A DNA stretch of 64,000 nt from Gemmatimonadota bacterium (GCA_046757885.1 JBHHZD010000002.1:37494-101493), one strand, 5' to 3'. Shown: positions 7,070 through 49,600, counted from the first letter of the stretch. A program made the numbers and translations. The notes: generated by a model not told the origin, from the sequence alone.

Positions 7070-8452
7070 CTAGCCGCGGGTGCCGGATCTCGCGTTCAGC
7101 TGCCGCCGCCACGCGGGCACCAGCTGAGGGCGGGGCCGGGGGCCCGCAACGCCCCGCCGCCCGCCGACGCCGGGCACCACGAAGGCGGCGGCGTCTTCCC
7201 TCATCCGTCGCTCGACGGACACGTACATCCCGGTCACGAAGGCGGCGAGCATGTAGATCGGGTCGAGATACGCAAAGGACAGAAAGACGCTCGTCGAGAT
7301 GAACCCGATGATGGCGACCGGAAAGTACGTCGTCGCGTGATACAGAAAGCGCTGCTCGGGGTCCCCACGCGCCCAGGTGGTGGGCAATCTCCGTCTCATG
7401 CGCAGCATGCTGAACAGCGAGCCGAACACGAGCGAGGACCAGAGGATCAGGCCGGGGAAGCCGAGCTCTGCCCCGACCTGGAGAAACGAGTTGTGGGCGG
7501 CGCTCCACTTGATGTGCCAGCCCGTTCGATCCTGGAAATCTCTTACCACGGAGGACATCTGGCTCCCCTCCGCGCGAGGGAAGTTGTCGATGCCGATCCC
7601 GAAGAACGGGTGACCCATCATGTACCCGAACCCGCGCTTCGTCACCTCACGCCGGCCGTACTTGGACGTCCAGTTGTAGTCCTCCTTCGGCTTCGTGATC
7701 GTCATCATCTGGTCCCAGTAACCGACGGGCGCCGTCGCGACGAGCGTGATCCCGACGACGAGAAGGAACGCCACCCGCTTCACGACCGAGACGTTCGTGG
7801 CCAGGAACAGGAGCGCCAGGCCGACGGCCACGGCACCGACGAACGCGCCCCGAGAGCCCGTTCGGGCCACGGTCGCCCCGATCGCCCCGAGGACGATCGC
7901 GCAGAAGATCTTGCCCTTCGTCCTCGCGACCTGGAACGCCAGCAGCGTGAGCGGCAGGGCGATCATCAGGATGAGCCCGAGGTCGTTCGCGTCGTACGTG
8001 TAGAGGTGGCTCAGTCGGGCCGCGGCGCCCCCGCGCGGCTTGCTGATCCCGAACACGAAGAGCGCCATCCAGCACAGGATGGCGGCGCTGATGACGTAGG
8101 CCCAGACGAAGCGATACAGGTCCCTTCCGCTGCGGATGGCCGCGATGAGCAGGAAGGCGAGGATGAGCACCTTCGAGTACTCGGTCAGGATGTACATGGC
8201 CGAGCCCCCGATCGAGATCCCGAATGCCGTGGACAGGCAGGCCATCACGGCCAGGGCCACGATGACGCGGGGCGGCCAGAAGCGAAGCAGCTTCCCCGTG
8301 TTCAGCTGTTTCGGGTGCGTCATCGCGTACAGAAGCGTGAGGAGCGCGAGCAGCAGCGCGGGACGCAGGGGGGCCAGAAAGCGAAAGTGCTGATGGATGC
8401 GGCTCACCGTCACGAGAATGAGGAGGAACAGCAGTGCCCGGAGACCATCCAT
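7070..8452 (-). CDS. O-antigen ligase / Wzy-like polytopic membrane protein
   Basis: About 12 predicted TM helices plus a periplasmic loop region (NSFLQVGAELGFPGLILW) typical of the O-antigen ligase (Wzy_C) family. ATG at 8452 (MDGLRALLFLLIL); the ORF is open to an alternative start at 8584. Confidence 0.6.
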   Translation of the reverse strand: MDGLRALLFLLILVTVSRIHQHFRFLAPLRPALLLALLTLLYAMTHPKQLNTGKLLRFWPPRVIVALAVMACLSTAFGISIGGSAMYILTEYSKVLILAFLLIAAIRSGRDLYRFVWAYVISAAILCWMALFVFGISKPRGGAAARLSHLYTYDANDLGLILMIALPLTLLAFQVARTKGKIFCAIVLGAIGATVARTGSRGAFVGAVAVGLALLFLATNVSVVKRVAFLLVVGITLVATAPVGYWDQMMTITKPKEDYNWTSKYGRREVTKRGFGYMMGHPFFGIGIDNFPRAEGSQMSSVVRDFQDRTGWHIKWSAAHNSFLQVGAELGFPGLILWSSLVFGSLFSMLRMRRRLPTTWARGDPEQRFLYHATTYFPVAIIGFISTSVFLSFAYLDPIYMLAAFVTGMYVSVERRMREDAAAFVVPGVGGRRGVAGPRPRPQLVPAWRRQLNARSGTRG

Positions 8453-8632
8453 GCCGAACCAGCTCCGGGTCGCCTCTCGAGCCCGCGCGCGAGCCGCAAA
8501 CGGCCCACCTGGCTCGCCCGTGCGGAACGACGAAGGCCTCGGACTACCTGCTGCCCTCATCGGTGCCAAGGAATCCTCCCTCATTCCCGCCGGATTCGCG
8601 GCGCTCGATCCGAAACCGCTCGGGCCTCACGT

Positions 8633-8646
8633 GCAAGATCGAGGCC
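8633..8646 (-). promoter_or_regulatory. Sigma-54-like -24/-12 element (minus strand: aGGCct-N5-TTGCA) upstream of the Wzy-like operon
   Basis: Reverse complement of top 8633-8646 reads AGGCCTcgatcTTGCA, with GG and GC spaced 12 nt apart. Lies about 50 nt upstream of the alternative start at 8584. Confidence 0.35.
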
Positions 8647-8837
8647 TGCAGCCGCTCACCGCGACGGCGCTGCCGCCGCAGGGCATCCGCGGGTCCGGAG
8701 CCCCTCCAGGGGGCGCGACGGGCACCGACTGTTGCCTCGCCGCATCAGGTCCGCGATGATGCCTTTCAACCTAGGGGACCGCACGCTCCGTGTCACGATG
8801 GCGCGGTCTTCGGGAGCGCCGACGACGCCGTCCCAAC

Positions 8838-8853
8838 TGGCTTGCATGTTGCA
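8838..8853 (+). promoter_or_regulatory. Sigma-54-type -24/-12 promoter element TGGCttgcatgTTGCA
   Basis: Exact TGGC-N7-TTGCA spacing (GG at 8839-8840, GC at 8851-8852), about 105 nt upstream of the ATG at 8958. Confidence 0.5.
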
Positions 8854-8957
8854 GGGCCGGGAGACGTTCGGGTCCGGTGAAGAGGAACGGCTCACGAAGC
8901 GTGGGCGCCGGCGCGGTTGCGTCGGAGTCATCCAATCTGCACTTGCGAGCACGCCAC

Positions 8958-10976
8958 ATGGGTGAGAGGGAAACCGAGGACGGAGTCGAGGCCGGGCGCC
9001 CGGTGGTGGCGGAGCGTACGCTCACGACGGCGGTCGTGGGCGCCGGTCCGATGGCGCAGCACCACCTGAGGGCGATCCTCCGGATTCCACAACGCCCTCG
9101 GGTGCTCGGAGTCGTGGATCCGACGCCGGCGGCCCGCGAGCGTCTGAGGCAGGCGTTTCCCGACCTCGATACGTTCGAGAGCCTGGAGGATCTCCTAGCC
9201 GTGTCCGTCCCGGACGTGCTCCATGTGTGCACGCCGCCCGAGGCCCACGAACGGGCGGCCGAGATGGCCCTGCGGTCGGGCTGCCATGCCTACGTCGAGA
9301 AGCCCGTGTGCGAAACGGCGGCGGGCGCCCGCCGGCTCGTGGACCTCGCCCGGGAGAGAGGCCGGATCCTATGCCCGGGCCACCAGCTCCTGTTCGAGCC
9401 GGCCGCACGTCGTCTCACGGCCCTCGCCGGCACCATCGGCCACCTGCAGCACGTCGAGAGCTACTTCTCGTTCCGAACCGTGCGAACGGCTGCGGGCGGT
9501 CGGACGCCCATCCGGGACGACATGCAGTTGCTCGACGTCCTCCCGCACCCGGTGTACCTGCTCCTTCACTGGCTGGGTGGAGAGTACGGTGAGCCCGCCA
9601 GGATCTCGTCCATCGAGCGCGGGCCCGGCGGGACGATTCACGCCCTGGTCAGCAGGGGGCAGACGACGGGTGTGCTCGTCGTCACCCTGGACGGCAGGCC
9701 TGTCGAAAGCTACGTGCGCCTGGTCGGAACCAACGGGACCCTGCACGCCGACTTCGTGCGCGGGACGGTGCAGCGCCTAGTGGGCCCGGGCGTCTCGACG
9801 ATCGACAAGCTGTTGAATCCCTATCGGCTGGCGCGCCAGCTCGGCTTCGGAACGACGGCGAGCCTGGGGCGGCGGCTCGCGAGGCGACAGCGCAGCTACC
9901 CGGGCCTCGTGGAGATCTTCACGGCCTTCTATCGGGCGGTGCTGGGAAACGGAAGTGCCCCCATCGAGGACGACGAGATCGTCGAGACGGTGGCCCTGTG
10001 TGAGGAGGTGGCGGCCGTGCTCCGGTCTCCGGGGGCCGCGCCATCTCAGGGATTCGCCGGCCGGAAAGATCGCATCCTCGTCACCGGCGGGACGGGCTTC
10101 TTCGGCCGCTCGGTCGTCCAGGCCCTGACGTCGCGCGGTCGCGCGGTGAGGGTCGTGGCCCGCCGATCCCCCCCTCCCTGGGAGCGACTCGCCGGCGTCG
10201 AGTACGTGGAGGCGGATCTCGCGGAAGGAGTTTCGGGCAGGATCCTCGAGGGGTGCGCGCAGGTGATCCACTGCGCCGCGGCGACGAGCGGAGGTTGGGC
10301 GGAGCACCAGCGCAATTCCCTGGACGCGACGGAGAATCTCGTTCGCGCGGCGGCAGCCGCGGGGGTCGGCGACTTCGTCCACGTGAGCAGTCTCGCCGTC
10401 GTCGAGGCCGAGCCGGGTCGTCCTGTCCGGGAGGACTCCCCGTTGCTGTCGGAGGCCCGCGGAAGCGGCCCGTATGCCTGGGGTAAACTGGCGTCGGAGG
10501 AGATCGTGACCCGACTCGGCGCGGAGACGGGGATCCGGACCATCATCTTGAGGCCCGGCGCCATCATCGACTTCGACGATCTCGATCCCCCCGGCCGGCT
10601 GGGCCGGCGGATGGGCAACCTCTTCGTGGCCGTCGGCTCGCGGTCGGAGCCGCTGGGCGTCGTCGATCGGCGCTTCGCGGCCGCGGTCGTGGCGACGGTC
10701 GTCGAGAACCCGGACCGGGCCCCGGCCGTGTTGCACGTTCTGGCTCCCCGTCTCCCCACGAAGCGGGAGCTCGTGGGCCGTCTTCGAGAGCGCAATCCGG
10801 ACCTGAGGGTGGTGTGGCTTCCATGGCTCCTTCTCGGTCCACTCTCCCTCACGGCGTCTCTCCTGCAGCGGATTCTCCGGCCCGGGAGCCCACCCGTGAG
10901 CCTGGTCAGGGTCTTCAGGCGCGAGACCTTCGATACGGAGGCTGTGCGTCGCCTCACCTCCCCGACGACCGGCTAG
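8958..10976 (+). CDS. Fusion protein: Gfo/Idh/MocA-family NAD(P) oxidoreductase (N-terminal) + NAD-dependent epimerase/dehydratase SDR (C-terminal)
   Basis: N-terminal half: Rossmann TAVVGAGPMAQHHL and EKP motif (HAYVEKPVC). C-terminal half: ILVTGGTGFFGRS... YAWGKLASE (YxxxK). 672 aa. Confidence 0.7.
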   Translation: MGERETEDGVEAGRPVVAERTLTTAVVGAGPMAQHHLRAILRIPQRPRVLGVVDPTPAARERLRQAFPDLDTFESLEDLLAVSVPDVLHVCTPPEAHERAAEMALRSGCHAYVEKPVCETAAGARRLVDLARERGRILCPGHQLLFEPAARRLTALAGTIGHLQHVESYFSFRTVRTAAGGRTPIRDDMQLLDVLPHPVYLLLHWLGGEYGEPARISSIERGPGGTIHALVSRGQTTGVLVVTLDGRPVESYVRLVGTNGTLHADFVRGTVQRLVGPGVSTIDKLLNPYRLARQLGFGTTASLGRRLARRQRSYPGLVEIFTAFYRAVLGNGSAPIEDDEIVETVALCEEVAAVLRSPGAAPSQGFAGRKDRILVTGGTGFFGRSVVQALTSRGRAVRVVARRSPPPWERLAGVEYVEADLAEGVSGRILEGCAQVIHCAAATSGGWAEHQRNSLDATENLVRAAAAAGVGDFVHVSSLAVVEAEPGRPVREDSPLLSEARGSGPYAWGKLASEEIVTRLGAETGIRTIILRPGAIIDFDDLDPPGRLGRRMGNLFVAVGSRSEPLGVVDRRFAAAVVATVVENPDRAPAVLHVLAPRLPTKRELVGRLRERNPDLRVVWLPWLLLGPLSLTASLLQRILRPGSPPVSLVRVFRRETFDTEAVRRLTSPTTG

Positions 10977-17199: not shown

Positions 17200-18222
17200 T
17201 CATGGGATGAAGCGCACGAGTCGCGGACCGAGCCGATTCGCGAGAGGAAGCGGCAACCGTCGCCACAGCCGGGTCGCCAGCGCATACCGGGGCGACTCGG
17301 GCGAGGGCGTGCCGGCCTGACCGGCGTTCGATCGCTGGTACCACCAGAGAGTCTCGTCCTCGCCGCCCCACTGTCGCTTGAAACGGTGCGTCCCGCCGCC
17401 CGGCGTGCAGCGGCCGAAGTTGAACAGCGTCGCTCCCTCCCGCGTCATCTCCTCCATGAACCGCCAGTAGAGGAGCATGTTCGGGGCGATGCGATTGTAG
17501 GGGCGGAGGGACGAGGCCCAGGTCAGCTCGAACTCGTGGGCCCAGCGGAAGCCGCAGCCCCCCGCGACGGGCCGACCTCCCAGCCACGCGCACCCGACCC
17601 GAAACTCGGTCGGAAACGCCCGTGCGATGGAGGCGAACAGCTCGCGGGGCAGGACGGGCGTTCCCAGGTCGCGCATGTGCCGCGCGAACACCCGATAGAA
17701 GGGCCCGATCTGATCCTCTCCGAACCGGACCTCGACGCCTTCCTTCCGGGGTCGCCGCACCTGGCTCCGTACCTTCGCCGCGAGTCCGTCCCAGAGGACC
17801 TCGGGCGCCTCCGCGGGCAGCGGCATCGTGACCGTGACCTTCCGGTGCGAGACCGGCAGGTCGATGGGCAGTGGCCGTCGCGAGCGAAGCTCCAGCAGAT
17901 CGGCGCCGCTTTCCTCGGACAGCCGGACCGCGGCCCCGGCGAGTCGTCGCACCGCCTTCTCCTCACCCAGCGGCCCCCCGTAGTTCAGGAACGGCATGGA
18001 GACGAGGTAGTGCCCGAACAGCGCGCTCCGGACGCGCACGAGCGGAAGCACGCCCACCAGCGATCCCGACTCGTCGCGACAGGCCAGGTACGGGCATTCG
18101 TGCCCAAATCCGTCCTCGAGGATCGCCTTCCACCCGTACAGATGGAAGGGCGTCCAGAAGGGCCGGTCGCGGACGAACGCGTCCCACTCGGGCCCTGCAC
18201 CGTCGTAGGGACCGAGCGTCAA
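17200..18222 (-). CDS. FemAB-family / GNAT-fold acyl(aminoacyl)transferase-like protein
   Basis: 340 aa with FemAB-like architecture (FHLYGWKAILEDGFGHE... FNFGRCTPGGGTHRFKRQWGGE). ATGA overlap with the upstream deacetylase gene. Confidence 0.6.
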   Translation of the reverse strand: MTLGPYDGAGPEWDAFVRDRPFWTPFHLYGWKAILEDGFGHECPYLACRDESGSLVGVLPLVRVRSALFGHYLVSMPFLNYGGPLGEEKAVRRLAGAAVRLSEESGADLLELRSRRPLPIDLPVSHRKVTVTMPLPAEAPEVLWDGLAAKVRSQVRRPRKEGVEVRFGEDQIGPFYRVFARHMRDLGTPVLPRELFASIARAFPTEFRVGCAWLGGRPVAGGCGFRWAHEFELTWASSLRPYNRIAPNMLLYWRFMEEMTREGATLFNFGRCTPGGGTHRFKRQWGGEDETLWWYQRSNAGQAGTPSPESPRYALATRLWRRLPLPLANRLGPRLVRFIP

Positions 18223-19106
18223 GAGTCCGGCCCGCCGTTCTCGGGAGGGGTGCCGTCACGAACCTTGAAGCAGCGGTCCACCGAGGTGAACCGGAATTCC
18301 GACAGAAGCCGCTCGAGCCGCTCGCCCACGGTGGCGAGTCCGCCGTAGTGGCGCCGGCGCGTGAGCCAGGGAGCCCGGACGCGAGGCTGGTCGGGATCCA
18401 GCTCCCACGGGTGCACGTAGAACACGGCCGGCGTCCCGTTCTCGGCTCTCTGGCGAAAGGCGTGGCGTGAGATCCGGTACGGGAGCTGGCGGAAGTACCC
18501 GCCGCCCGAGGCCGGAATCCGAATCCCGCGCCACGTCGCCAGCGTCATCGGGAGCTCCAGGATCACGCCCGCCTCGCGGGCGATGAGATGCGGCTCCGGC
18601 AGGGCCCCGGGATAGCCGTAATTCGCCCGGCGGATCGGAAACAGGCTCGAGTCATACCGGTAGCCCTCCTCGAGGAGGACGTCGAAGGCCCACTCGCAGC
18701 CGGGGAGCAGCGAGAAGCTCGGCGCCCGGTACCCGATCACCGCCCGTCCCGCGAGATCTCCCAGCAGGGCCCGGGAGTCCCGCACTTCCTCCCGGAACGC
18801 CTCCCGACGGAGCTCGCTGACCCGCCGATGGCTCCACCCGTGCGAAGCGATCTCGTGCCCCTCGGCCGCGATGCGCCGCACGAGATCGGGGTGGCGGCGA
18901 CCGATCCAGCCGAGAACGAAGAACGTGGCTCTCGCATCGTGCCGGTCCAGCAGCCCGAGGAGGGCGTCCACGCCCCTCTCCACCCGGCTCGGCATCGACT
19001 CCCACTCGTCCCTCGCGATGCGGGACTCGAACGCGTGCACCTGGAAGTACTCCTCGACGTCCACCGAGAAGACGTGCGTGCCCGAGGCCACGCCGCTCGC
19101 GATCAC
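18219..19106 (-). CDS. Polysaccharide deacetylase (CE4)
   Basis: HVFSVDVEEYFQ... FFVLGW... SHGWSHRR, typical of the deacetylase subfamily that begins with DVEDYF. Confidence 0.75.
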   Translation of the reverse strand: MIASGVASGTHVFSVDVEEYFQVHAFESRIARDEWESMPSRVERGVDALLGLLDRHDARATFFVLGWIGRRHPDLVRRIAAEGHEIASHGWSHRRVSELRREAFREEVRDSRALLGDLAGRAVIGYRAPSFSLLPGCEWAFDVLLEEGYRYDSSLFPIRRANYGYPGALPEPHLIAREAGVILELPMTLATWRGIRIPASGGGYFRQLPYRISRHAFRQRAENGTPAVFYVHPWELDPDQPRVRAPWLTRRRHYGGLATVGERLERLLSEFRFTSVDRCFKVRDGTPPENGGPDS

Positions 19107-21012: not shown

Positions 21013-21029
21013 CGCAACGTCTGTGCCGG
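21013..21029 (-). promoter_or_regulatory. Sigma-54-like -24/-12 element (minus strand CGGCACagacgTTGCG)
   Basis: Reverse complement of top 21013-21029. GG-N10-GC spacing, about 20 nt upstream of the ATG at 20997, which heads the long minus-strand operon 20997 to 15000. Confidence 0.4.
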
Positions 21030-21119: not shown

Positions 21120-22808
21120 GTGTCGCGCGCGCGCGACACTCACAATGGACCATTTCCCCGCTCGGAACTCAAGAGGCGCGTGAAACGGGACCCGGCCGCT
21201 CTCGTGAACGGACCCTTCGACGTCGTCGTCGTGGGAGGAGGCTTCGTGGGCGCCTGCGTCGCGTGGGATGCCGCCTTGCGCGGCTGGCGCGTCGCCCTGC
21301 TGGAGCGAACCGACTTCGGCGCCGGGGTGTCGGCGAACAGCCTGAAGATCCTACACGGGGGCCTGCGCTACCTGCAGCGCCTCGACGTCCGGAGGATGCG
21401 CGAATCGATCGCCGAGCGGGCCACCTGGCTCCGCATCGCGCCCCACCTCGTCGAGCCGCTGCCCGTCCTCGTCCCGACCCGCGCGCGCGGCCTGCAGCGC
21501 AAGGCCACTCTGGGAGCCGCCGTGCGCGTGGCCGACGGCTTCTTCCCGGGCCGCAATCGAGGGCTTCACCCGGATCGACGTCTCCCGGCCGGCCGGCTTC
21601 TGAGCCGGGCGGAGGCCCTGGAGACCGTCCCGGAGCTCGCGCACGGGCTCCCGGATCTCGACGGCGCCGTGCTGTTCCACGACGCCCAGCTCTACAGCGC
21701 CGAGCGACTCGTGCTCGAGATCGTCCGGGCGGCCGCGGAGGGCGGGGCGACCGTCGTGAATCACCTCGCGGTTCGGGACGCCCTGATGGAGCCCGGCCGC
21801 ATCGCGGGCGTCCGCGCGCGAGACGAGCTCACGGGCGACGAGCTCTCGATCCGCGGCCGCGCGGTGGTCGTGGCCGCCGGCGACAGCTCGGCGGAGCTGT
21901 CGGCTCGCCTCACGGGGGCGGCGACGGTCACGAGTCCCGCCTGCGTCGGCGTGAACCTCGTGCTGAATCGGGATCCGCCGCCGTGCGCGGTCGGGGTCTC
22001 GTCGGGCGTGCCGGACCCTTCGCGGCGGCTCGGCCTGCCGGGGCGTCAGCTCTTCGTCGTCCCGTGGCGCGGCCGCACGATGGTCGGCACGGGCTACTAC
22101 CCCGTCGAAAGGCCGATCCGGCCCGGACCCGCTGACGCGGACGAGCTCGCGGCACGCTTCCTCGGCGAGGTGAGGCGGGCCTGGCCCGCGCTGTCGGACG
22201 CGCGACTCCGTGACGTCGTGCGCGTCCACCGCGGGCGGCTGCCCGCGCGCAGGGCCCGACGGGCCGGAGAGTGCCGCCTCGAGCAGGCCGCGAGGATCAC
22301 GGATCACGGGAGAGACGGGGCGGCGGGCCTGTTCAGCGTCACGGCCGTGAAGCTGACGACGGCCCGGGCCCTGGCCGAGCGCGTGGTGGACCTCGTGGGG
22401 CGGGCGTTGGGTCGCCCGGGGACCCCGTGCCGCACCCCCTCGACGCTCCTGCCGGGGTCGTCCCGGACGAGCACGGACGAGCTGAGGCGGGAGGCCGGCC
22501 GGCGGCTCGAGAGGATCCTGCCCCCGGAGGTCGTGGACCACCTCGTCCGGTGCTACGGCCGGGACTACGCGGCCGTGGCCGCGGCGGCGGAAGCCGACGC
22601 GCGGATGCGGGAGCGCGTGCAGGACGATTCGCCCGTCATCCGGGCCCAGCTTCGGCACGCGGTCTCCGAGGAGATGGCCTGCACGCCGGACGACCTCTTG
22701 CTGCGCCGCACGGAGATCGGGGCGAGAGGCCGGGTCTCGGAGACGAGCCGGCGGGCCGCGGCCGAAGCTCTCGCGGGGCCACGGCCGGCCGGGGGGGGCC
22801 ATGCGTGA
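21120..22808 (+). CDS. FAD-dependent oxidoreductase, glycerol-3-phosphate dehydrogenase (GlpD)-like
   Basis: N-terminus FDVVVVGGGFVGACVAWDAALRGWRVALLE... SANSLKILHGGLRYL closely matches the GlpD-family FAD-binding region. The true start is probably the GTG at 21180 or 21204. Confidence 0.7.
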   Translation: MSRARDTHNGPFPRSELKRRVKRDPAALVNGPFDVVVVGGGFVGACVAWDAALRGWRVALLERTDFGAGVSANSLKILHGGLRYLQRLDVRRMRESIAERATWLRIAPHLVEPLPVLVPTRARGLQRKATLGAAVRVADGFFPGRNRGLHPDRRLPAGRLLSRAEALETVPELAHGLPDLDGAVLFHDAQLYSAERLVLEIVRAAAEGGATVVNHLAVRDALMEPGRIAGVRARDELTGDELSIRGRAVVVAAGDSSAELSARLTGAATVTSPACVGVNLVLNRDPPPCAVGVSSGVPDPSRRLGLPGRQLFVVPWRGRTMVGTGYYPVERPIRPGPADADELAARFLGEVRRAWPALSDARLRDVVRVHRGRLPARRARRAGECRLEQAARITDHGRDGAAGLFSVTAVKLTTARALAERVVDLVGRALGRPGTPCRTPSTLLPGSSRTSTDELRREAGRRLERILPPEVVDHLVRCYGRDYAAVAAAAEADARMRERVQDDSPVIRAQLRHAVSEEMACTPDDLLLRRTEIGARGRVSETSRRAAAEALAGPRPAGGGHA

Positions 22809-23775
22809 CGTCCGGCGGGTGGCGTCCGTCGGCGGCCGCGCCGGTGTCTCGCTCGTCCTCATCGGATGGATCCTGGGACGCTCCAACCTTCACGGCGTGT
22901 GGGACGCCCTGAGCTCCGCGGACCCCTTCCCGCTTCTCTTCGCCTGGGGGCTCCTGGCGCTCGGCTATCTCCTGCGGATCACGAGGTGGCGCTACCTTCT
23001 GCGCGCTCTGGAGGTCCGGGCGTCGCTCGGCTACCTCTTCCGGTCGTTCATGGTGGGGGTGTTCTTCAACCAGCTGCTCCCCTCGACGATAGGGGGCGAC
23101 ACCGTGCGCGGCTACGACTCCTGGAGGGCGGGCACCTCGAAGCCCGGAGCCGTGGCCGTCATCTTCGTGGATCGGTTCCTGGGCCTGTTCGCCCTCGTGG
23201 GCTTCGCGGTAGCGGCCGTCTTCGTCGCGGACACCGAGCTCGCCGGACGGCTCGGACGGTTCCCGACGATCGTGGCGGGCCTGGCCATCCTCATGCTGCT
23301 CGTCGCGTGGGTCGCGTTCCTGTCTCCCGCCTCTCTTCTCCCGCGGAGCGGCGTCAAGCGCCTCCTCCCAGGCCCCCGCCTGCGCCGGTGGCTGAAGGGA
23401 GGGAAGGAGGCGTTCGCGATGTTCCGGCGCGAGAAGCGCATCCTGCTCGGGGGGCTCCTGGTCTCGATCTGCGTGCAGGGCCTCGTCATCGCGTTTCACA
23501 TGACCATCGCGCGATCCCTGGGCCTCGCGATCCCGGCGCGCGAGTTCTTCCTCATCATCCCGGTCGCCACGCTCGTGATGATGCTCCCCATCTCCATCAA
23601 CGCCATCGGAATCCGGGAAAACGTGTACGCCTTCCTCTTCGGCTTCTACGGCCTCGGCGAGGAGCAGGCCCTCGCGTTCGCCTGGCTCGTCCTGGGCATC
23701 GTGCTCCTGAACGCGGTTCTCGGAGGCCTGTTCTTCCTGGCAAGGCGGAGGGCGGGCGAGGGAGTCACGGCATGA
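22801..23775 (+). CDS. Lysylphosphatidylglycerol-synthase TM-region-like (flippase-like) membrane protein
   Basis: 324 aa, about 8 TM helices, with the conserved LLPSTIGGDTVRG motif of the family often paired with GT2 enzymes. ATG overlaps the upstream stop. Confidence 0.6.
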   Translation: MRDVRRVASVGGRAGVSLVLIGWILGRSNLHGVWDALSSADPFPLLFAWGLLALGYLLRITRWRYLLRALEVRASLGYLFRSFMVGVFFNQLLPSTIGGDTVRGYDSWRAGTSKPGAVAVIFVDRFLGLFALVGFAVAAVFVADTELAGRLGRFPTIVAGLAILMLLVAWVAFLSPASLLPRSGVKRLLPGPRLRRWLKGGKEAFAMFRREKRILLGGLLVSICVQGLVIAFHMTIARSLGLAIPAREFFLIIPVATLVMMLPISINAIGIRENVYAFLFGFYGLGEEQALAFAWLVLGIVLLNAVLGGLFFLARRRAGEGVTA

Positions 23776-27526: not shown

Positions 27527-27630
27527 GGCGGCGGGTGCCGCATCCTGACCGCCCGGTCTCCTTCGTGCAAGTCCGGAGCCGCCGGACCGGGCCCCTTTCG
27601 AGGGCCGATCGAGTCGACTACCCTGTGTGC

Positions 27631-31771: not shown

Positions 31772-32003
31772 CCGTCTTCCTTCGCTCGATGCCGCTGTGC
31801 CGGGAATGGCCGGCCTGCCCGTTCGCGCACGGGAGTGGTCGTCGCACCGCACGGACCCTGCCACGTGCGGGAGAGCCGCGCGCCGCGGCTTTTTCGCCCG
31901 CCCCCGGAGGCGATTGCAGAATGTGTGGCGTACGCTCAACATACAGGGGTCCGGACCCGTGGCTCAAGCGCCGAATCGCCCCGCGAGCGCGTACCGGGAG
32001 CCC

Positions 32004-32015: not shown

Positions 32016-32079
32016 AACTTACGCCTTCCAACCCCACGCGCGGCGGGCGCTAGCGCACACCTTGCTCCGATGCGGCGAC

Positions 32080-35672: not shown

Positions 35673-36851
35673 ATGCGGATCGGAGTCGACGCGACCTGCT
35701 GGGCCAATCGGAGAGGGTACGGCCGGTTCACGCGCGAGCTCCTGCGCGCGTGCGTCGAGCTCGCCCCCGACGATCGGTTCGTCTGCCTCCTCGATCCGGC
35801 GTCGGCCGGGAGCTTCGACCTGGAGGGCGAGAACGTGGAAGTCGTGTCCGTCCACCAGCGGGTGTCGCCGACGGAGGCCGCCGCCGCCGACGGGAACCGG
35901 TCGCCGCGCGACATGCTTCGCCTCGCGTCGGCCGCGGCACGCACGCGGGTGGACGTGTTCTTCTGCCCTTCCGTGTACACGTTCTTTCCTCTTCCGCGCC
36001 GCATGGCCGCCGTGGTGACGATCCACGACACCATCGCGGAGAGGTTTCCGGAGCTCACGCTCCCGTCCCGGCGGGCCCGACTGTTCTGGACGCTGAAGGT
36101 GCGGCTCGCCATTCGGCAGGCGCGGCTCATCCTCACCGTGTCCGAGTACTCGGCGCGGGAGATCGCGCGGCGCCTGCGCGTGCCCGGGTCGCGGATCCGG
36201 GTCGCCGGGGAAGCCCCGGCCCCCGCCTTCCATCCGAGCGAGTCCGCGGAGCGGGTGGCGGCCGAGGCGGCGACCCTCGGCCTGCCGGTCGGCGCCCGCT
36301 GGTTCACCTACGTGGGCGGATTCAACCCGCACAAGAACGTGCAGGACATCGTCCGGGCGCACGCGGAGCTCGTGGCCGAGCATCCGCGGAATCCTCCGCA
36401 CCTCCTCCTCGTGGGAGCGACCCGGGGCGACGTGTTCCACGGAAACCAGGGGGAGATCCGGCGGCTCATCGAGAGCCTCGGCACCGCGCCGTACGTGGTC
36501 TGGACCGGCTTTCTGCCCGACGATCGGCTCCGCCATCTCCATTCCGGAGCGCTGGCGCTCCTGTTGCCGTCCGAGGCGGAGGGGTTCGGCCTCCCTGCCG
36601 TCGAGGCCGCGGCGTGCGGCGCTCCCGTCGTCGCGACGACCGAGAGCCCGCTTCCCGAGATTCTGGCGGGGGGAGGCATCTTCGTGCGGCCTTCGGACGC
36701 GGACGCCCTCAAGACGGCGATGCGGCGGCTTCTCGAGGATCGCGCGCTTCGAGAGGAGCTGGGGAGCGGCGCACGGGCCCGGGCCGGCGCCCTGAGCTGG
36801 GAGCGGGCCGCCGGGCGGGCCATGGCCGCGCTCCGGGAGGCGGCCGCGTGA
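35673..36851 (+). CDS. GT4 family glycosyltransferase
   Basis: MRIGVDATC... C-terminal EGFGLPAVEAAACGAPVVAT. Confidence 0.8.
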   Translation: MRIGVDATCWANRRGYGRFTRELLRACVELAPDDRFVCLLDPASAGSFDLEGENVEVVSVHQRVSPTEAAAADGNRSPRDMLRLASAAARTRVDVFFCPSVYTFFPLPRRMAAVVTIHDTIAERFPELTLPSRRARLFWTLKVRLAIRQARLILTVSEYSAREIARRLRVPGSRIRVAGEAPAPAFHPSESAERVAAEAATLGLPVGARWFTYVGGFNPHKNVQDIVRAHAELVAEHPRNPPHLLLVGATRGDVFHGNQGEIRRLIESLGTAPYVVWTGFLPDDRLRHLHSGALALLLPSEAEGFGLPAVEAAACGAPVVATTESPLPEILAGGGIFVRPSDADALKTAMRRLLEDRALREELGSGARARAGALSWERAAGRAMAALREAAA

Positions 36852-42522: not shown

Positions 42523-43914
42523 GTGACGCGGAACTTCCTCGCCCTCGGATCGGGCGAGGCGGCGGCGCGAATCGTCGCCTTCGCGGCGACCGTGTACATC
42601 GCGCGCGTGCTCGGAAGCGAGGCGTTCGGCATCATCGGGTTCGCCCTGGCCGTCATCCTGTACCTGAACCGGATCGCGGACGCGGGACTGGAGCTCGGGC
42701 TCGGCGTCCAGCTCATCGCGGAAGATCCGGACCGCATCGAGTCGATCGCCCCGTCCCTCCTCACGGCCCGCGTGCTTCTGGCCGCCCTGCTCGCGGCCGG
42801 CCTCGCGGTCCTCGGGCTCGTGGTGTTCCCCGGCGCGGAGGGGAGCGTGCTCGCGCTGTACGGGCTCACCCTGCTCGCCGTGGGCGCGGGGTCCCGATGG
42901 ATCCTGTTCGGGCTCGAGCGGACGCGATTCGTCGCGGGGGCCCGGACGGCCGGCGAGCTCGTCATGGTCGGGCTCGTGTTCTGGCTCGTCCGGACCCCCG
43001 AGGACCTGAAGGCGGTTCCCCTGGCCCAGTTCGCGGGCGACGCGCTGGCGGCGCTCGCCTTCCTGTGGTGGCTCGGCCGGCTCGGGCATCGACTGCGTCC
43101 GCGGCTGGATGCGGCGGCGATCCGTCCGCTCCTCCGGCGGGCGGCGCCCCTCGTGGGGTCCGCGCTCCTGGGCCTGATGATCTACAACTCGGACCTCATC
43201 TTCCTGCGGGCATTCCGCGGGCTGAGAGCGGTCGGACTCTACGCGGCCGCCTACGCGCTCATCAGCTTCCTGAGCAACCTGGGGACCGCCTACAGCATGA
43301 GCCTCCTGCCCACCCTGACGCGGCTCGGCGGCGAGCCCCGGGACCGGCTCGATCTGTACCGGACCGCCACCGTCCACGTCTTCGCGGCCGGTTTCCCGAT
43401 CGCGGTGGGCACCACGGTCCTCGCGCCGGGGATCATCCGCCTCGTGTTCGGGGACGGCTACGCGGGCTCGGCCCTGCCCCTCCAGATCCTCATCTGGTCC
43501 GTGACCCTGGCCCTCCTGCGGGACGTCCCGGTCGTGGCGCTCATGTCCGAGGGTCGGGAGGACAGGGTGCTGCGGCTCACGGCCTGGGCCACGGCCGCGA
43601 ACCTCACCCTGAACGTGGCCGTGATCCCCGCCTTCGGCCTCGTCGGAGCCGCGGCGGCCACCGTGGCCACGGAAGGGACCCGGATGGCCCTGGCGCGCCG
43701 CGACGCGACCCGTCTCGGATTCACGGCGCCGGGGGCGGGCCGCCTGGCGCCTCCGGCGATCGCGGGGCTCGTGATGGGAGGCGCGCTGGTGCTCGGGCCG
43801 GCGGCGCCCGTGTGGCTCGCGGTACCCGCGGGCGTCGTCGTCTACGCGCTGGGCCTCCTGGCCCTGGGGGGTGTGCGTGTCCGGCGGGGCGGGCGCCCGA
43901 GCCTCGAGTTGTGA
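42523..43914 (+). CDS. Wzx-like flippase (polysaccharide biosynthesis protein, MOP superfamily)
   Basis: 463 aa with about 12 TM helices. N-terminus LALGSGEAAARIVAFAATVYIARVLG typical of Wzx/RfbX. Confidence 0.7.
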   Translation: MTRNFLALGSGEAAARIVAFAATVYIARVLGSEAFGIIGFALAVILYLNRIADAGLELGLGVQLIAEDPDRIESIAPSLLTARVLLAALLAAGLAVLGLVVFPGAEGSVLALYGLTLLAVGAGSRWILFGLERTRFVAGARTAGELVMVGLVFWLVRTPEDLKAVPLAQFAGDALAALAFLWWLGRLGHRLRPRLDAAAIRPLLRRAAPLVGSALLGLMIYNSDLIFLRAFRGLRAVGLYAAAYALISFLSNLGTAYSMSLLPTLTRLGGEPRDRLDLYRTATVHVFAAGFPIAVGTTVLAPGIIRLVFGDGYAGSALPLQILIWSVTLALLRDVPVVALMSEGREDRVLRLTAWATAANLTLNVAVIPAFGLVGAAAATVATEGTRMALARRDATRLGFTAPGAGRLAPPAIAGLVMGGALVLGPAAPVWLAVPAGVVVYALGLLALGGVRVRRGGRPSLEL

Positions 43915-44030
43915 GACCGGAGGTGTGGCACCGGCGCCACGCCGCGACGGGCGGGGGCGGGCCGCGGCGCAACGGGGACCGGATGGGCCGCATTCTGGCG
44001 CGGTCCGGCACGGGCCGTCAGATTGTCCGG

Positions 44031-44046
44031 CGGCACCGCACTTGCG
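44031..44046 (+). promoter_or_regulatory. Sigma-54-like -24/-12 element CGGCACcgcacTTGCG
   Basis: GG (44032-33) and GC (44044-45) 12 nt apart, about 52 nt upstream of the VTC-domain gene ATG at 44098. Confidence 0.45.
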
Positions 44047-44097: not shown

Positions 44098-44826
44098 GTG
44101 CCGGCTAGCTACCAGCGGACGTTCAATCGCTTCGAGGTGAAGTATCTCCTGCCCCAGGCGGAGATCCGGAGTCTCCTGTCCGAGCTGGACGGGTACCTGC
44201 TGCCCGACCCGCACGGCGACGGGGTCTGGGGATATCCCGTGCACTCGGTGTACTGGGACTCGGCGGACCTCACGATGTTCTGGGAGAAGATCGAAGGGAT
44301 CAAGTTCCGCCGGAAGCTGCGATTCCGCTCGTACGGCGACGGAGAGCCCTTCGTCGAGATCAAGCAGCGCCTGGATCGGACGATCCAGAAGCGGCGGGCG
44401 CGCCTGCCCCTGGACCGGATGCGATCCGTGTTCGGCTGGGGCCGGGACCCGGAGCCGGCCGCGGACGCGGACATCGACGACCCGATCGTCGCGGAGGCCG
44501 TCCTTCTGCGGCATTCCTACCGGCTGGAGCCCCGGGTCGCGATCCGATACCGGCGACGGGCCTTCTTCGGCGCGTACGAGCCGGATCTCCGGCTCACGTT
44601 CGACACGCGCGTCCAGTACTCCACGACGCGGCTCGAGCCGGCTCCGCCCCTCGAGACGGGAAAGTATCTCGTGGACCCGCGGCTGGCCGTGATGGAGATC
44701 AAGTTCAACGAGCGCGTGCCGCTGTGGCTCCTTCGGCTCGTCGCGAGGCGCGGCCTGTCGCTCGTCCGGCTCTCGAAGTACTGCGGCGCGGTGGATCGGG
44801 AATTCTTCGGATCCGAGCTCACCTGA
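44098..44826 (+). CDS. VTC-domain protein (polyphosphate-polymerase/CYTH-like triphosphate-tunnel domain)
   Basis: N-terminal FNRFEVKYLL and overall about 240 aa, typical of bacterial VTC-domain proteins (PF09359-like). Confidence 0.65.
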   Translation: MPASYQRTFNRFEVKYLLPQAEIRSLLSELDGYLLPDPHGDGVWGYPVHSVYWDSADLTMFWEKIEGIKFRRKLRFRSYGDGEPFVEIKQRLDRTIQKRRARLPLDRMRSVFGWGRDPEPAADADIDDPIVAEAVLLRHSYRLEPRVAIRYRRRAFFGAYEPDLRLTFDTRVQYSTTRLEPAPPLETGKYLVDPRLAVMEIKFNERVPLWLLRLVARRGLSLVRLSKYCGAVDREFFGSELT

Positions 44827-44859
44827 GGCAGCCGGGTAACCCCCAACCGTGAGGGCAAG

Positions 44860-45555
44860 GTGGACGAACTGATTCGCGAGATGATGCAGACCTCTTCGAT
44901 CGGCGGGGGGTTCGAGCTGTGGGAGGCCATCGTGGCCCTGTCGCTCAGCTTCTTTCTCTGCCTCCTCGTCGCCTATTTCTACCGCGAGACCCATCGTGGG
45001 CTTTCGTACTCGGTCGCCTTCGTGCACACGATGATCCTGATGGGCGTGACGGTGTCGATCATCATGCTCATCATCGGGAGCAACATCGCCCGCGCCTTCG
45101 CGCTGGTCGGAGCCCTGTCGATCATCCGCTTCCGGAACGCCGTCAAGGAATCCCGGGACGTCGCCTTCATCTTCCTCACGATGGCCATCGGCATGGCGAC
45201 GGGAACCGGCTTCTATCTGTCCGCGATCGTGTTCACCCTCTTCATGTGCGCCATCATCTACTTCCTCCACCGGTTCGACATCGGGGCCATGAAGACGCGG
45301 GAGATCCTCCTCAAGCTCCACCTGGCGGGGTCGGAGGACTACCACGCGGTGTACAACGACGTGTTCTTCCGCTACCTGCGCGAACAGTCCCTGCTGAGCG
45401 TGGAGACGCTCGGAGCCGACGACCGGACCGAGCTCGTATACTCGATCCAGTTCAAGCGCGGGGCGGACGAGAAGGCCTTCCTCGACGAGGTGCGGGGCGT
45501 GAGCGGGACGAGCAAGGTCGCGCTCCTGCCCGGACAGGAGAACATCAACGTCTGA
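44860..45555 (+). CDS. DUF4956-like membrane protein (usual partner of bacterial VTC-domain proteins)
   Basis: 231 aa. Three or four TM helices, then a C-terminal soluble region (KLHLAGSEDYHAVYNDVF... IQFKRGAD). Confidence 0.6.
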   Translation: MDELIREMMQTSSIGGGFELWEAIVALSLSFFLCLLVAYFYRETHRGLSYSVAFVHTMILMGVTVSIIMLIIGSNIARAFALVGALSIIRFRNAVKESRDVAFIFLTMAIGMATGTGFYLSAIVFTLFMCAIIYFLHRFDIGAMKTREILLKLHLAGSEDYHAVYNDVFFRYLREQSLLSVETLGADDRTELVYSIQFKRGADEKAFLDEVRGVSGTSKVALLPGQENINV

Positions 45556-45571
45556 TCCGGAGGGCCCCGAC

Positions 45572-46690
45572 GTGCTCGGACGGCTGCGCCGATTCGTGAT
45601 GCTGCGGGAGAGGGGGCTCACCCTGTCCCTCGGGGCCGCCCTCGCCGTGGCGGTCGGGATCCTCGCGGTCCCGCCGGCCCGGGCGGCCGTCCTGCGAGCC
45701 GCCGAGCGGGCCGCCGACGCGTGGGAGGCCCGCTGGACCCGCCGGCTCGAGGCGGGCGAGCGGCTCGTGGCACGGGGCGAGTACGAGCGCGCCGCGAGGT
45801 ACCTCGCGGCCCTCGACCGGCGCTTTCCCGCGGTCACGGTCAAGCACGCGAGGGACCGCGAGCGCGAGCGCCTGCTCGCGGCGCTCGGCCGCAGCTACAC
45901 GGAGCTCGGCCGGAAGCGGCTCGCGCTGGACGCCTTCCGTCGTCTCGTCGACTTCGATCCGCGCAACGTGGCGAACCACGCCGCGCTCGCCCGGGCGAGC
46001 CTTCGCTTCGACGAGCCCGAGGCGGCGCGCGACGAGTTCGCCGCGATCCTGCGCGTGGACCCGATGCATTTCGAGGCGCTCACGGGCTACATCGGATACT
46101 TCTTCGATCGCGGGGAGTACGGGCGGGCCGTGGAGGCCTTCCGGACGTATCTGGACGCGCTCGTCCCCACCCGGATCCTGGCCGGGTTCGGAGGGACGGA
46201 GACCGCGGTCTACGTGCCCGCGGACGGCCGGGTCCGGCCCGTGTCGCTGGCCCTGCTCGCTCCCGGCGGACGGGGCCGCCTCTCGCTGGGGACGGACGGC
46301 TTCTCGGTGGAGATCGGGAGCCTCGAGGCGATCGGGCCTCTGCTGGGCGGGCGGCCCGGCAGAACCGACGCGTCCGCGGCCCTGCCCCGGGTGGCGTGGA
46401 ACGCCGTGGGCTTCCGCCCCGTCTCGGACCGGAGGTTCCTCGCCCGGGACGCGGACCCCGTGCTGCGGGGGCCGGAGGTCCGGCTCCCCCACGGGATCGA
46501 GCGTGTGGAGCTCAGGATCCGGGTGCTCAAGCCCGTCCCGCCGCGGCTCTGGGAGTCGGTGCGCGCCAGCTATCGCAACACGCTGGACTTCGAGGGACTC
46601 GCGGACGCGCGGGCCCGCTCCGCCCTCTGTCCGGCCGCGGCGGGAGAGGATCCTCCCTGCTCGAGCGTGAGGTGGCCCGGTGACCTCTAG
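45572..46690 (+). CDS. TPR-repeat protein with N-terminal signal/anchor
   Basis: Repeated helical A/R/L-rich TPR-like units (YERAARYLAALD..., YTELGRKRLALDAFRRLVDFDPRNV...). Confidence 0.5.
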   Translation: MLGRLRRFVMLRERGLTLSLGAALAVAVGILAVPPARAAVLRAAERAADAWEARWTRRLEAGERLVARGEYERAARYLAALDRRFPAVTVKHARDRERERLLAALGRSYTELGRKRLALDAFRRLVDFDPRNVANHAALARASLRFDEPEAARDEFAAILRVDPMHFEALTGYIGYFFDRGEYGRAVEAFRTYLDALVPTRILAGFGGTETAVYVPADGRVRPVSLALLAPGGRGRLSLGTDGFSVEIGSLEAIGPLLGGRPGRTDASAALPRVAWNAVGFRPVSDRRFLARDADPVLRGPEVRLPHGIERVELRIRVLKPVPPRLWESVRASYRNTLDFEGLADARARSALCPAAAGEDPPCSSVRWPGDL

Positions 46691-49600
46691 GACCGGGGCG
46701 CGGCGCCGGCGGCGCGTGCGGCTGCGGGACGTCGTCCTGCTGTCCCTGCCCCTGGACTTCCTCCTCGGGTTGCTCCTCGCGGGATCCGTGCTCGACTACG
46801 TCCGCGCCCGCCAGTTCGACGACTGGTGGTCCCGCGGGTTCAGCGTGCCGGAGCTGTTCGCCGACCGGATCTGGGCCGCCGCCACGCTGCCGCGCGCGCT
46901 CAGCCTCGAGCGCCGGACGGATCCGGAGGGGGCGGACCCCGGCATCGTGCGCCTGCGCGTGACCGGGGAGGGATGGCAGGGCCTCACCGGAGACGCTCTG
47001 GCCCGCTGGAGCGAGTGGACCGACGCCGTCCTCCTGGAGCCGGGAGACGCCCGGGCCGTCGAGCTCCGCAAGAGGGGGGACACGAGCGTGCACTGGCTCA
47101 CGCCGAAGAAGTCCTTCACGCTGAAGACGTCGAGAACGGGTCTGTTCAAGGGCTACCGGCGACTCGCCTTCTCCGTGAAGGACGTCCTGCCGCTGTACGT
47201 GTCGAATCGGCTCGCCGCGGAGTTCGGCCTCCTGGCCCCGAGCACCGGGGTCGCCCCCGTCTTCCTCAACGATCGATTCTACGGGATGTTCCGCTGGGTC
47301 GAGCCCGTGGACGAGTCCTTCCTCCGACGCCACGGCCGGATGCCGGGGAACCTCTGGGAGGGCGAGGTCGCCGAGCGGGGCGAGAACTTCAAGGGGCTCC
47401 CGCGGGGCCTGTTCCACTACCCGTACATCTGGGAGCGGACGGCCATCAACGACCGTCCGGGCGCGGACACGACGGATGCCCTGCGGGGGCTCATCGAGGA
47501 CCTTCAGGGCGGCTCCTTCGCGTCGCACCTCGCGCTCATGGGACGGCTGGATCGCGAGGAGATCGCCCGCTTCGTCGCCTACCTGCTCGCGGTCGGCGAC
47601 CCGTACCACATGGACAACCTGCACAACCAGGTCTGGTACGAGGATCCGTCGACGGGCCTCCTTCACCCGATTCCCTGGGACGTGCGTTTGCTCGACCTCC
47701 GGGATCCGCCGATCTGGGTGAACCATTTCCTGCAGTCCGTCCTCCGCGATCCGTTCGTCGTGGACCGGGCGCTGGAGATTCTGCGCGACGAGCTCGCCGA
47801 CGAAGCCCTCGCGCGGAAGGCGGAGGACCTCACCCGTTCGGCCTGGGACCGGTACCGCTCGCACTTCGCGTACGACAGGGCCCGTCGGCGGATCGTCCCC
47901 GACGTCGGAACCCCGGCGCAGGTCATCGGGCGTCTGCGGACGAATCTGGACGTGCTCCGGACCTGGATGGAGGATTCGCGCGTGGCCGTGGCCGTGGGCG
48001 CCGGGGTCCGGCCCGACGGCACGACCATCGTGGATCTGGAGACCCGGGGATACGCGGGAGCCGATCTCGTCGGGCTCGACGTGGCAGGGGGCGGGAGCAT
48101 CCGGCCCCGCGTCGTCGCGGATCGAAACGGAAACGGGCTGCCGGACGCGGGGGACCGGACCGTGGACGGGGCGTGGACCCGGGCGGCCGACACCCTTCGG
48201 TTCGTGCCGGTGGAGCCGGTGGCGCTCCTCCCGGGCTGGGACACCCGCGAGCGCGGCATCCGCCCGGGGGCCGTGCACTACCGGCTCTTTCTCGTGCCTC
48301 CGCGTCGCTCGGGCCGGCTTTCTGCGCCGGCGGCCGTCGTCCCCCGGCTGCGGAACCGGATCGGCGCCTCTCCGACGCGCATCGAGCGATGGAGCGATGG
48401 GGATCCGCCGACCCCGACCCGCTCCTTCAGCCCGTGGTCCTTCCCCGCGCCGCGGGGCGCCAGCCGGATCTGGCGCGGCGGCGTGCGCGTCGGACACACG
48501 CTGCGGGTGGGTCGGGCCGACACCCTCATCATCGAGGCCGGCACGACCGTGGTGCTGGATCCGGAAGTCTCCCTCGTGGTGCGCGGCCATCTCGAGGTGC
48601 GCGGCGCACCGGATCGGCCCGTCCGCTTCCAGGCCTCCGATGCGCGGCATCCATGGGGAGCCCTCGCGCTCCAGGGACCGGGCGCGGGCGGGAGCGTGAT
48701 CCGCCACGCCCGCTTCTCCGGCGGCGGCGGTGCCACGATCGACCGGATCGAGTACACCGGGATGGTGAACGTGCACGGGGCCGACGACGTGCGGCTCGAG
48801 CACGTCGAGCTCCTCGACAACCTCCGCAGCGACGATGCGCTGCACGTCCTTCACGCCCGCGTCTTCCTCAGCGACTGCCGGTTCCGGAACGCGAACGGGG
48901 ACGCCGTGGATCTGGACTATGCCACGGGACGGATCGAGCGCTGCCGCTTCGAGGGATCCCGGAACGACGCGGTCGACCTGATGACGTCGAGCCCGGCCAT
49001 CATCGCCAGCGTGATGACCGGGTCCGGTGACAAGGGGATCTCGATCGGCGAGCGGAGCCGCCCGCTGCTCGTGGCGGACACGATCACCGGATCGACGCGC
49101 GGCATCGAGGTGAAGGACGGATCGGAGCCGGTCGCGCTCGGCGGACTCGTGACCGGCAACGGAGTCGGTCTCCTCGAGAACGTGAAGAACTGGCGGTACG
49201 GAGCCGGCGGCCGGGCCCGCCTCGTGGGGCTCGCCATCCGGGAGAACGCCGTCGATACGGCGCGGGATCAAGCGTCACGCGTCACGCTGCCCGCAGATTC
49301 CTCGCGGCTCGCGGACGAGGAGACGAGGCGCCTCCTCGCGATCCACGGCGTGGCGGATGACCCCGAGCTCGCGGCCACGGCGGCGGCCGGCCGCGCGGTC
49401 CGCCTCGTCGCGCGGGAGGCCTTCGTCGACGACTTCGCGCCCATCGCCGGGTGGCGGGGAACGGCGGGCGTGCGCCGACTCGTCCGTCGCTCGGACGATC
49501 TCGTCGTCACGTTGGATCGACGGGGCGGGATGGCGGAGCGCGAGGTGGACTGGGACCTCACCGACACCGGTCGCTCGTACTGGATCGTGCTCGAGCTCAC

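Follow-up and report, generated by a model that had tools for sequence, protein, structure and literature searches.

A candidate sigma-54 regulon with a shared upstream dyad in a surface-polysaccharide locus of Gemmatimonadota

We analyzed a 64,000-nt stretch of DNA from a Gemmatimonadota bacterium (GCA_046757885.1, JBHHZD010000002.1:37494-101493; the whole stretch is called the window below) for the organization of its putative sigma-54 promoter elements, in particular those in the divergent gap between a Wzy-like polymerase gene and a fused oxidoreductase/epimerase gene. The window has a G+C content of 71%, and scans with Pfam and NCBIfam identify nearly the whole 64 kb as a single surface-polysaccharide locus. 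Its genes encode many glycosyltransferases of the GT2, GT4 and PMT_2 families, a DegT aminotransferase, sulfotransferases, deacetylases, epimerases and a Wzx-type flippase (42523-43914). Two marker families of the XrtA/PEP-CTERM system, the TIGR03006 deacetylase (18219-19106, minus strand) and the TIGR03019 FemAB-like protein (17200-18222, minus strand), score above their curated cut-offs, and for this reason an XrtA system is likely to be present elsewhere in the genome. No genes for a regulator, an exosortase, a PEP-CTERM protein or PrsK/PrsR/PrsT were found within the 64-kb window, and six-frame translations of the window gave no convincing candidate for a PEP-CTERM C-terminus.

The Wzy-like gene and the fusion gene are separated by a gap of 373 bp. 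To its left, the Wzy-like gene is the first of an operon with the order Wzy - deacetylase - ATP-grasp - GT2 - GT4, which runs from 8584 down to 2794; to its right, the fusion gene is followed by a GT2 gene. The start codon used for the Wzy-like gene is the ATG at 8584, the gene caller having preferred an alternative start at 8452, and the encoded protein scores under the cut-off for TIGR03097. Homologs of the fusion protein number more than 1000, at approximately 50-57% identity. The features of the gap and the two genes that flank it are given below, with scores from a heuristic sigma-54 weight matrix that was approximated from the published consensus.

7070-8584, minus strand: Wzy-like polymerase/O-antigen-ligase family gene, gene 1 of the leftward operon (Pfam Wzy_C, E = 2e-18)
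8632-8647 (read 8647-8632), minus strand: sigma-54-type -24/-12 element P-, AGGCCTCGATCTTGCA, 10.5 bits
8730-8747, no strand assigned: 18-bp dyad TGTTGCCTCGCCGCATCA, consensus TGTKGC-N6-GCMACA, candidate shared upstream activating sequence
8838-8853, plus strand: sigma-54-type -24/-12 element P+, TGGCTTGCATGTTGCA, with GG at 8839-8840 and GC at 8851-8852, the top matrix score of the window (16.4 bits)
8958-10976, plus strand: gene for a GFO_IDH_MocA oxidoreductase fused to an NAD-dependent epimerase/dehydratase (672 amino acids), gene 1 of the rightward operon, with an in-frame ATG at 8958

A sigma-54 promoter has GG at -24 and GC at -12 with exactly 10 nt between them, in the context YTGGCAC-N5-TTGCW, and transcription starts approximately 12 nt past the GC. 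A preliminary description of the window had reported one such motif on the plus strand, about 105 nt upstream of the fusion gene, and a second on the minus strand, upstream of the Wzy-like operon. Both were confirmed by reading the sequence, and the coordinates reported earlier were correct to within one base. P+ is an exact TGGC-N7-TTGCA with GG-N10-GC spacing, and its 3' end lies 104 nt from the ATG at 8958. P- matches GGC and TTGCA, also with exact GG-N10-GC spacing, and lies 48 nt upstream of the Wzy ATG at 8584; the interval 8633-8646, as it was first reported, is the GG..GC core of the full element at 8632-8647. Neither P+ nor P- matches the extended CAC/ACG at -22 to -20. Transcription is predicted to start near 8864 from P+ and near 8620 from P-. 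P+ would drive the fusion gene together with the GT2 gene downstream, and P- would drive the Wzy operon (8584 to 2794). A consensus scan of positions 8400-9100 revealed no sigma-70-like promoter, a weak result in that the sigma-70 consensus of this phylum may differ. No terminators were found in the gap, nor were any Rfam RNA families, which indicates that the leader of the fusion gene (approximately 95 nt) is not a known riboswitch.

The 18-bp dyad TGTTGCCTCGCCGCATCA is located between the two elements; measured from its centre, the GG of P+ is 101 nt away and that of P- 93 nt. The upstream activating sequences of sigma-54 promoters are typically found 80-150 bp upstream. The dyad thus occupies the position expected for an enhancer, and we consider it a candidate enhancer. 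A third sigma-54 site at 8721-8735, GGCACCGACTGTTGC, was considered and rejected, its spacing being one base too long and its TTGC belonging to the left half of the dyad.

The conservation of these elements was assessed in 80 metagenomic loci and three loci from metagenome-assembled genomes (MAGs), all with orthologs of the fusion gene; a scan of GTDB genomes for close relatives gave only two distant, irrelevant loci. For counting, we used 64 non-redundant 300-nt regions upstream of the fusion orthologs. The pattern GGC-N7-TTGC occurs on the coding strand in 24 of the 64 regions, compared to 1-7 regions for each of the other spacings between N2 and N13. Position, orientation and exact spacing of the element are kept upstream of orthologs with only 50-60% protein identity, and the sequence of the spacer varies. 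Position -11 is A or T at 32 of 46 sites, the genomes being 60-70% G+C. At most sites, positions -22 to -20 are unlike the canonical CAC/ACG, and in some of the orthologs just 11-25 nt separate the element from the estimated start codon. This pattern of conservation marks GGC-N7-TTGC as a two-part site maintained by selection, with the geometry of a sigma-54 promoter and not that of a sigma-70 or extracytoplasmic function (ECF) promoter.

The divergent Wzy ortholog is kept in 15 of the loci, 12 of which carry a GG-N8-TTGC aimed at it; GGGTCCCGTTCTTGCT, GGGCCTCGCTCTTGCA and the P- element of the window, AGGCCTCGATCTTGCA, represent the common form of this Wzy-side element. In the same 15 synteny loci, the dyad with an N6 spacer and at most one mismatch is found in 11, other spacers in 0-1 loci each, and shuffled sequences give 0.04. 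Examples from related loci are TGTTGCGCGGACGCCACA, TGTGGCGCTACGGCCACA and TGTGGCGTGATTGCCACA. Over all loci, the dyad and the plus-strand element occur together in approximately 22 cases, and the dyad is almost never found upstream of the gene by itself. The distance from the dyad centre to the GG at -24 ranges from 31 to 130 nt among the relatives and is fixed at 123-129 nt in one clade of eleven loci. An alignment of the eleven upstream regions of one clade (L008, L036, L040, L046, L050, L051, L056, L065, L074, L075 and L076) shows invariance mainly in the islands TGTTGC, GC.ACA, CGGC and TTGC, with most of the intervening sequence variable. Between the dyad and -24 (columns of approximately 60-105), this alignment also has a few invariant or near-invariant A/T positions in GAAAC- and TAACTC-like blocks, at about the halfway point, which is the expected place for a bending site of the IHF type. 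Additional modules are found at neighboring genes in other genomes; one of them, in L051, heads a UDP-GlcNAc 2-epimerase gene. In all, the combination of promoter and dyad turns up again in about 30 environmental genomes that are not related to one another.

Outside a Nitrospira-like group, 29 of 33 loci possess the -24/-12 element. The group itself comprises 31 loci (L006, L009, L012-L019 and others) whose fusion proteins are 66-92% identical to proteins labelled Nitrospira, and these have neither a -24/-12 element nor a dyad upstream. The regulatory module is therefore lineage-restricted even though the enzyme is shared. For most of the loci that bear the module, comparison with labelled proteins leaves the taxon ambiguous. 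Both promoter elements are present in the Gemmatimonadaceae MAG loci L086 and L087, which come from the genomes GCA_036278935.1 and GCA_035687925.1, respectively. In L087, the gap measures 180 bp, and GGGCCCCATTCTTGCG (minus strand) and CGGCGCGAACCTTGCC (plus strand) stand nearly back to back at 9875-9905, a few bases apart.

Within the window, the preliminary description had noted similar elements upstream of other operon heads. This recurrence was found at 21028-21013 (minus), 27581-27566 (minus), 44031-44046 (plus), 52225-52210 (minus) and 58816-58801 (minus). These elements, the further dyads and one weak candidate are as follows.

21121-21138, no strand assigned: dyad B, TGTCGCGCGCGCGCGACA, a perfect palindrome with 2 mismatches to the pattern, whose centre precedes the GG of the 21028-21013 element by 102 nt
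21013-21028, minus strand: sigma-54-like element CGGCACAGACGTTGCG, 10.6 bits, heading GT2 - GT2 - XrtA-system deacetylase - FemAB-like - sulfotransferase - DegT
31924-31941, no strand assigned: dyad C, TGTGGCGTACGCTCAACA, 1 mismatch, with a weak promoter partner
31848-31863, minus strand: weak, uncertain sigma-54-like element TGGCAGGGTCCGTGCG, 8.9 bits, GTGC in place of TTGC, 70 nt from dyad C and aimed at the GT2 operon 31771-28842
43924-43941, no strand assigned: dyad D, TGTGGCACCGGCGCCACG, 1 mismatch
44031-44046, plus strand: sigma-54-like element CGGCACCGCACTTGCG, 8.0 bits, lying 99 nt from dyad D, with the GTG at 44098 following after 52 nt, heading VTC - DUF4956 - TPR - CotH - metallophosphoesterase
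58920-58937, no strand assigned: dyad E, TGTTGCGTCCGCGCCACA, with no mismatch to the pattern
58801-58816, minus strand: sigma-54-like element TGGAACGGACATTGCC, 13.8 bits, 113 nt from dyad E, aimed at a PMT_2-family glycosyltransferase gene (start near 58720) and the leftward operon behind it
52210-52225, minus strand: strong sigma-54-like element CGGCACGACAGTTGCA, 15.6 bits, 64 nt before the ATG at 52146 of a radical-SAM/SPASM gene, no dyad
27566-27581, minus strand: sigma-54-like element CGGCTCCGGACTTGCA, 9.6 bits, 82 nt before the ATG at 27484 of an epimerase gene, no dyad

The pairing of dyads with promoter elements was compared to chance. The dyad pattern with at most two mismatches occurs 8 times in the window, with 3.6 occurrences expected. 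Five oriented pairs of a dyad and a promoter element are present at distances of 93-114 nt, compared to 0.07 expected in a band of 85-135 nt and a maximum of 2 in 200 simulations. The dyad at 8730 accounts for two of the pairs, one with P+ and one with P-; the others join the dyads at 21121, 43924 and 58920 to the elements at 21028-21013 (minus), 44031-44046 (plus) and 58816-58801 (minus), respectively.

The suggestion that sigma-54-like elements occur in the window far more often than by chance held for some measures and failed for one. It failed for the raw count of GG-N8-TTGC, of which 24 were observed versus 23.4 expected, so that this pattern shows no excess over the whole window; the version with N9 spacing was likewise not enriched. 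It held for TGGC-N7-TTGCW with at most one mismatch, which was found 19 times versus 8.9 expected, a count reached in none of 100 shuffles. It also held for the top matrix scores and for intergenic placement. The two highest scores, at 8838 (16.4 bits) and 52210 (15.6 bits), are both intergenic and gene-directed, with 0.19 matches expected at 14 bits or above. In a scan of the 64-kb window with the same matrix, 8 of the 26 matches at 8 bits or above were intergenic (P = 4e-5, with the intergenic share of the window estimated at approximately 5.3%). The one-mismatch count was inflated by a 13-mer, TGGCGCTCCTGTT, which occurs three times inside coding regions, at 7803-7818 (minus), 36553-36568 (plus) and 60449-60464 (plus), and which may encode a shared peptide motif of membrane proteins.

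We conclude that the window probably contains a multi-operon sigma-54 regulon for polysaccharide synthesis, in which the divergent promoters P+ and P- share a dyad bound by one enhancer-binding protein. A sigma-54 promoter with an upstream enhancer is a textbook mechanism. RNA polymerase with sigma-54 would occupy each GG-N10-GC element in a closed complex unable to start transcription alone. A dimeric or hexameric enhancer-binding ATPase of the NtrC family, with a Fis-type helix-turn-helix, would bind the dyad approximately 95-100 bp upstream of each -24, reach the polymerase via DNA looping and open the promoter through ATP hydrolysis. In the gap between the Wzy-like and fusion genes, one dyad would serve both divergent promoters, and the two operons would therefore fire together when the activator is on. 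Since at least three more operons begin with this combination of dyad and promoter, the locus would behave as one regulon, with a single activator acting on all of the modules. Control of the locus by sigma-54, which had been proposed as biologically plausible, is supported by the spacing-specific conservation, the paired upstream dyad, the lack of a detectable sigma-70-like promoter and the XrtA/PEP-CTERM context. A survey of sigma-54 across bacteria (Francke et al., 2011, PMC3162934) assigns a sigma-54 gene, YP_002761129.1, to the phylum's cultured type species, Gemmatimonas aurantiaca T-27, in its supplementary file 1, and the adjacent columns "1 / 9" for G. aurantiaca are read here as one sigma-54 and nine activators. 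The same study finds a link between sigma-54 and exopolysaccharide genes that spans phyla.

Several observations weigh against a sigma-54 regulon with the dyad as its enhancer. Neither rpoN nor an activator gene was detected in the 64-kb window by searches of six-frame translations for GAFTGA, Walker-A and RpoN-box patterns or by domain scans, and neither was found within 4 kb of the fusion gene in the 80 related loci. Searches for GAFTGA, ESELFGH and RpoN-box patterns in 650 kb of related loci yielded nothing real, and the 10-kb flanks of the two Gemmatimonadaceae MAG loci contain glycan genes only. The right half of the window dyad TGTTGCCTCGCCGCATCA is degenerate. In some relatives the dyad lies only 31-55 nt from the GG at -24, which is short for looping. 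Both promoters of L087 are present with no dyad between them, and two good sigma-54-like sites in the window, at 52210 and 27566, likewise have none. The element at 21028-21013 would leave a leader of just approximately 5 nt before the probable GT2 start, ATG 20997. Finally, the dyad pattern and the band of 85-135 nt were set after inspection of the data; the effect sizes are, nevertheless, far beyond what such a post-hoc choice could produce.

Some of these observations would fit a different role for the dyad. The sigma-54 promoters may be real and the dyad the operator of a PpsR/CrtJ-like repressor, of another Fis-type repressor or of a CRP-like protein acting independently, with the true enhancers located elsewhere or specific to each operon. 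TGT-N12-ACA is the classic palindrome of PpsR/CrtJ, which is a repressor and not a sigma-54 activator; in purple bacteria, PpsR binds such palindromes in pairs within photosynthesis-gene promoter regions (PMC4452267). The 18-bp outline is the same, and the protein that binds it there is of the Fis-type helix-turn-helix class. An independent operator would also accommodate the lineage-dependent distance between the dyad and -24 (31 to 130 nt), as well as the promoters without a dyad in L087 and in the window. However, the dyad here is usually single, lies 50-130 nt upstream of sigma-54-type elements and belongs to a polysaccharide locus; there are almost no copies that lack a neighboring -24/-12 element pointing away from the dyad. 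Standing upstream of the promoters and not over them, the dyad is poorly positioned to repress. The fixed distance of 123-129 nt in one clade and the use of the same 18-bp geometry by the sigma-54 activator GlrR also argue for an enhancer, and we regard an operator of this kind as unlikely.

The alternative that GGC-N7-TTGC is not read by sigma-54 at all, being the conserved site of another protein or part of a lineage-peculiar promoter of the sigma-70 family or ECF type, appears improbable. It could draw on the departure from CAC/ACG at -22 to -20 at most sites, on the likeness of TTGC to the first four bases of the TTGACA -35 hexamer and on those elements that lie just 11-25 nt from an estimated start codon. 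The invariant GG and GC are, however, exactly 10 nt apart around a variable spacer and always gene-directed, and ECF promoters have 16-17 nt, not 10, between their elements. No -10-like element follows at 16-18 nt beyond, the sigma-70 scan is empty, and an A or T prevails at -11 in spite of the high G+C content of the genomes. That both motifs of the window are functionless chance matches in GC-rich DNA is very hard to credit. The absence of an excess of GG-N8-TTGC over the whole window is what such matches would give, but the strict-spacing conservation over dozens of divergent loci, the intergenic enrichment and the five dyad pairs versus 0.07 expected are not; by conservation and dyad pairing, the chance explanation is already refuted for practical purposes.

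We compared the dyad-plus-promoter module to known systems. The PEP-CTERM box is a 17-nt motif ending in TTTACA that lies, on average, 63 nt before a sigma-54 motif upstream of PEP-CTERM protein genes and is reported only in Proteobacteria; further motifs outside the Proteobacteria were explicitly expected by its discoverers (Haft et al., 2006, PMC1569441). Both systems place a motif, here the candidate activator site, ahead of a sigma-54-type -24/-12 element and use this arrangement again and again at the head of transcription units linked to exopolysaccharide; the XrtA-system markers TIGR03006 and TIGR03019 are also present in the window. In contrast to the PEP-CTERM box, the motif described here is an 18-bp TGTKGC-N6-GCMACA dyad, and its targets are biosynthetic operons (glycosyltransferases, Wzy and sugar-nucleotide enzymes) rather than single-gene operons for PEP-CTERM proteins. 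TTTACA occurs nowhere in the window on either strand. The preliminary description had invoked PrsR, the dedicated regulator of PEP-CTERM/exosortase-type loci, and this link is not supported: the regulators there are PrsK, PrsR and PrsT, and none of these, nor an exosortase or a PEP-CTERM protein, is encoded in the window. Lacking the TTTACA motif, serving biosynthetic targets and belonging to a different lineage, the module is not a member of the PEP-CTERM box family, though it would work alike.

A second resemblance is to GlrR/QseF, an activator of the NtrC family that binds an 18-bp TGTC-N10-GACA more than 100 bp upstream of sigma-54 promoters (PMC3045617), namely those of glmY, glmZ and rpoE in Enterobacteriaceae (PMC3045617, PMC6075780). 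Both sites are 18-bp TGT..ACA palindromes upstream of the promoter, and both sets of targets belong to cell-envelope sugar metabolism. The half-sites differ, being TGTC for GlrR and TGTKGC here, with G or T and not C at position 4 of the dyad. Three sites per promoter are found there and usually one here, in another phylum and at other targets; the comparison covered the sites and their targets. With regard to canonical sigma-54 promoters (TGGCACG-N4-TTGCW), the elements agree in GG-N10-GC, in the T or C before the GG and the C after it, in TTGCW at -12, in their location 20-110 nt before start codons and in their link to genes for cell-surface polysaccharides (Francke et al., 2011, PMC3162934); they differ at -22 to -20, which here are mostly not CAC/ACG. 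In the literature searched, neither a sigma-54 regulon of Gemmatimonadota nor the TGTKGC-N6-GCMACA dyad is described.

Taken further, the data lead us to lean, with some reserve, towards a broader interpretation. A new enhancer-binding protein that recognizes TGTKGC-N6-GCMACA from single, often shared sites may switch on the whole XrtA-associated polysaccharide locus, through a circuit conserved in Gemmatimonadota and other uncultured soil and sediment lineages, and this circuit may correspond, outside the Proteobacteria, to the PrsR box, a counterpart that Haft et al. anticipated but did not find. Few soil phyla are as abundant as Gemmatimonadota, and, to our knowledge, almost nothing is known of their gene regulation. 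The module defines a candidate regulon of at least five operons in this locus for the production of surface polysaccharide or biofilm. Its 18-bp dyad could be used to fish out the cognate activator, and the module as a whole provides a sequence signature with which to find co-regulated genes in MAGs. The mechanism itself is unsurprising; the module is of value for discovering regulons and activators in a phylum that has received little study. It would extend the proposed sigma-54 control of the "bacterial exterior" to another phylum, and it is a candidate for the exosortase-associated regulatory motif expected outside the Proteobacteria (Haft et al., 2006, PMC1569441).

Several details of the other sites in the window were also recorded. 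Dyad B, TGTCGCGCGCGCGCGACA, is located between the GT2 operon on the minus strand and a gene for an FAD-dependent oxidoreductase on the plus strand, and its fourth base is C, which is also the case in TGTC-N10-GACA, the site of GlrR. The longest open reading frame of the first GT2 gene in that operon starts at 21153, which is probably wrong because the Pfam domain begins only at residue 60. A further candidate on the plus strand at 32051-32066, TAGCGCACACCTTGCT, 120 nt from dyad C, was not counted, as it has AG instead of GG at -24. The predicted starts of the element at 21028-21013 (minus) and of this imperfect one lie 3-5 nt before the likeliest ATG codons, 20997 and 32080, respectively, which hints at near-leaderless or leaderless mRNAs, or at mis-assigned starts, at these two genes. 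The element at 27566-27581 sits in a divergent gap of 146 nt, and the epimerase gene behind it has a strong Shine-Dalgarno sequence.

Two observations concern the gene content of the window. The operon at 44098-50955 (plus strand), which is headed by a dyad/sigma-54 module, has the order VTC domain - DUF4956/MgtC-like - TPR - CotH kinase with a beta-helix (1060 amino acids) - metallophosphoesterase, and its combination of a polyphosphate-polymerase-like VTC protein with a CotH protein kinase is an unusual pairing for an exopolysaccharide cluster. In addition, two paralogous cassettes, at 21120-23775 (plus strand) and 53703-57542 (minus strand), each encode a flavin oxidoreductase of the DAO or amine-oxidase type and a flippase-like membrane protein of the LPG_synthase_TM family; in the cassette at 53703-57542, a GT2 gene comes next.

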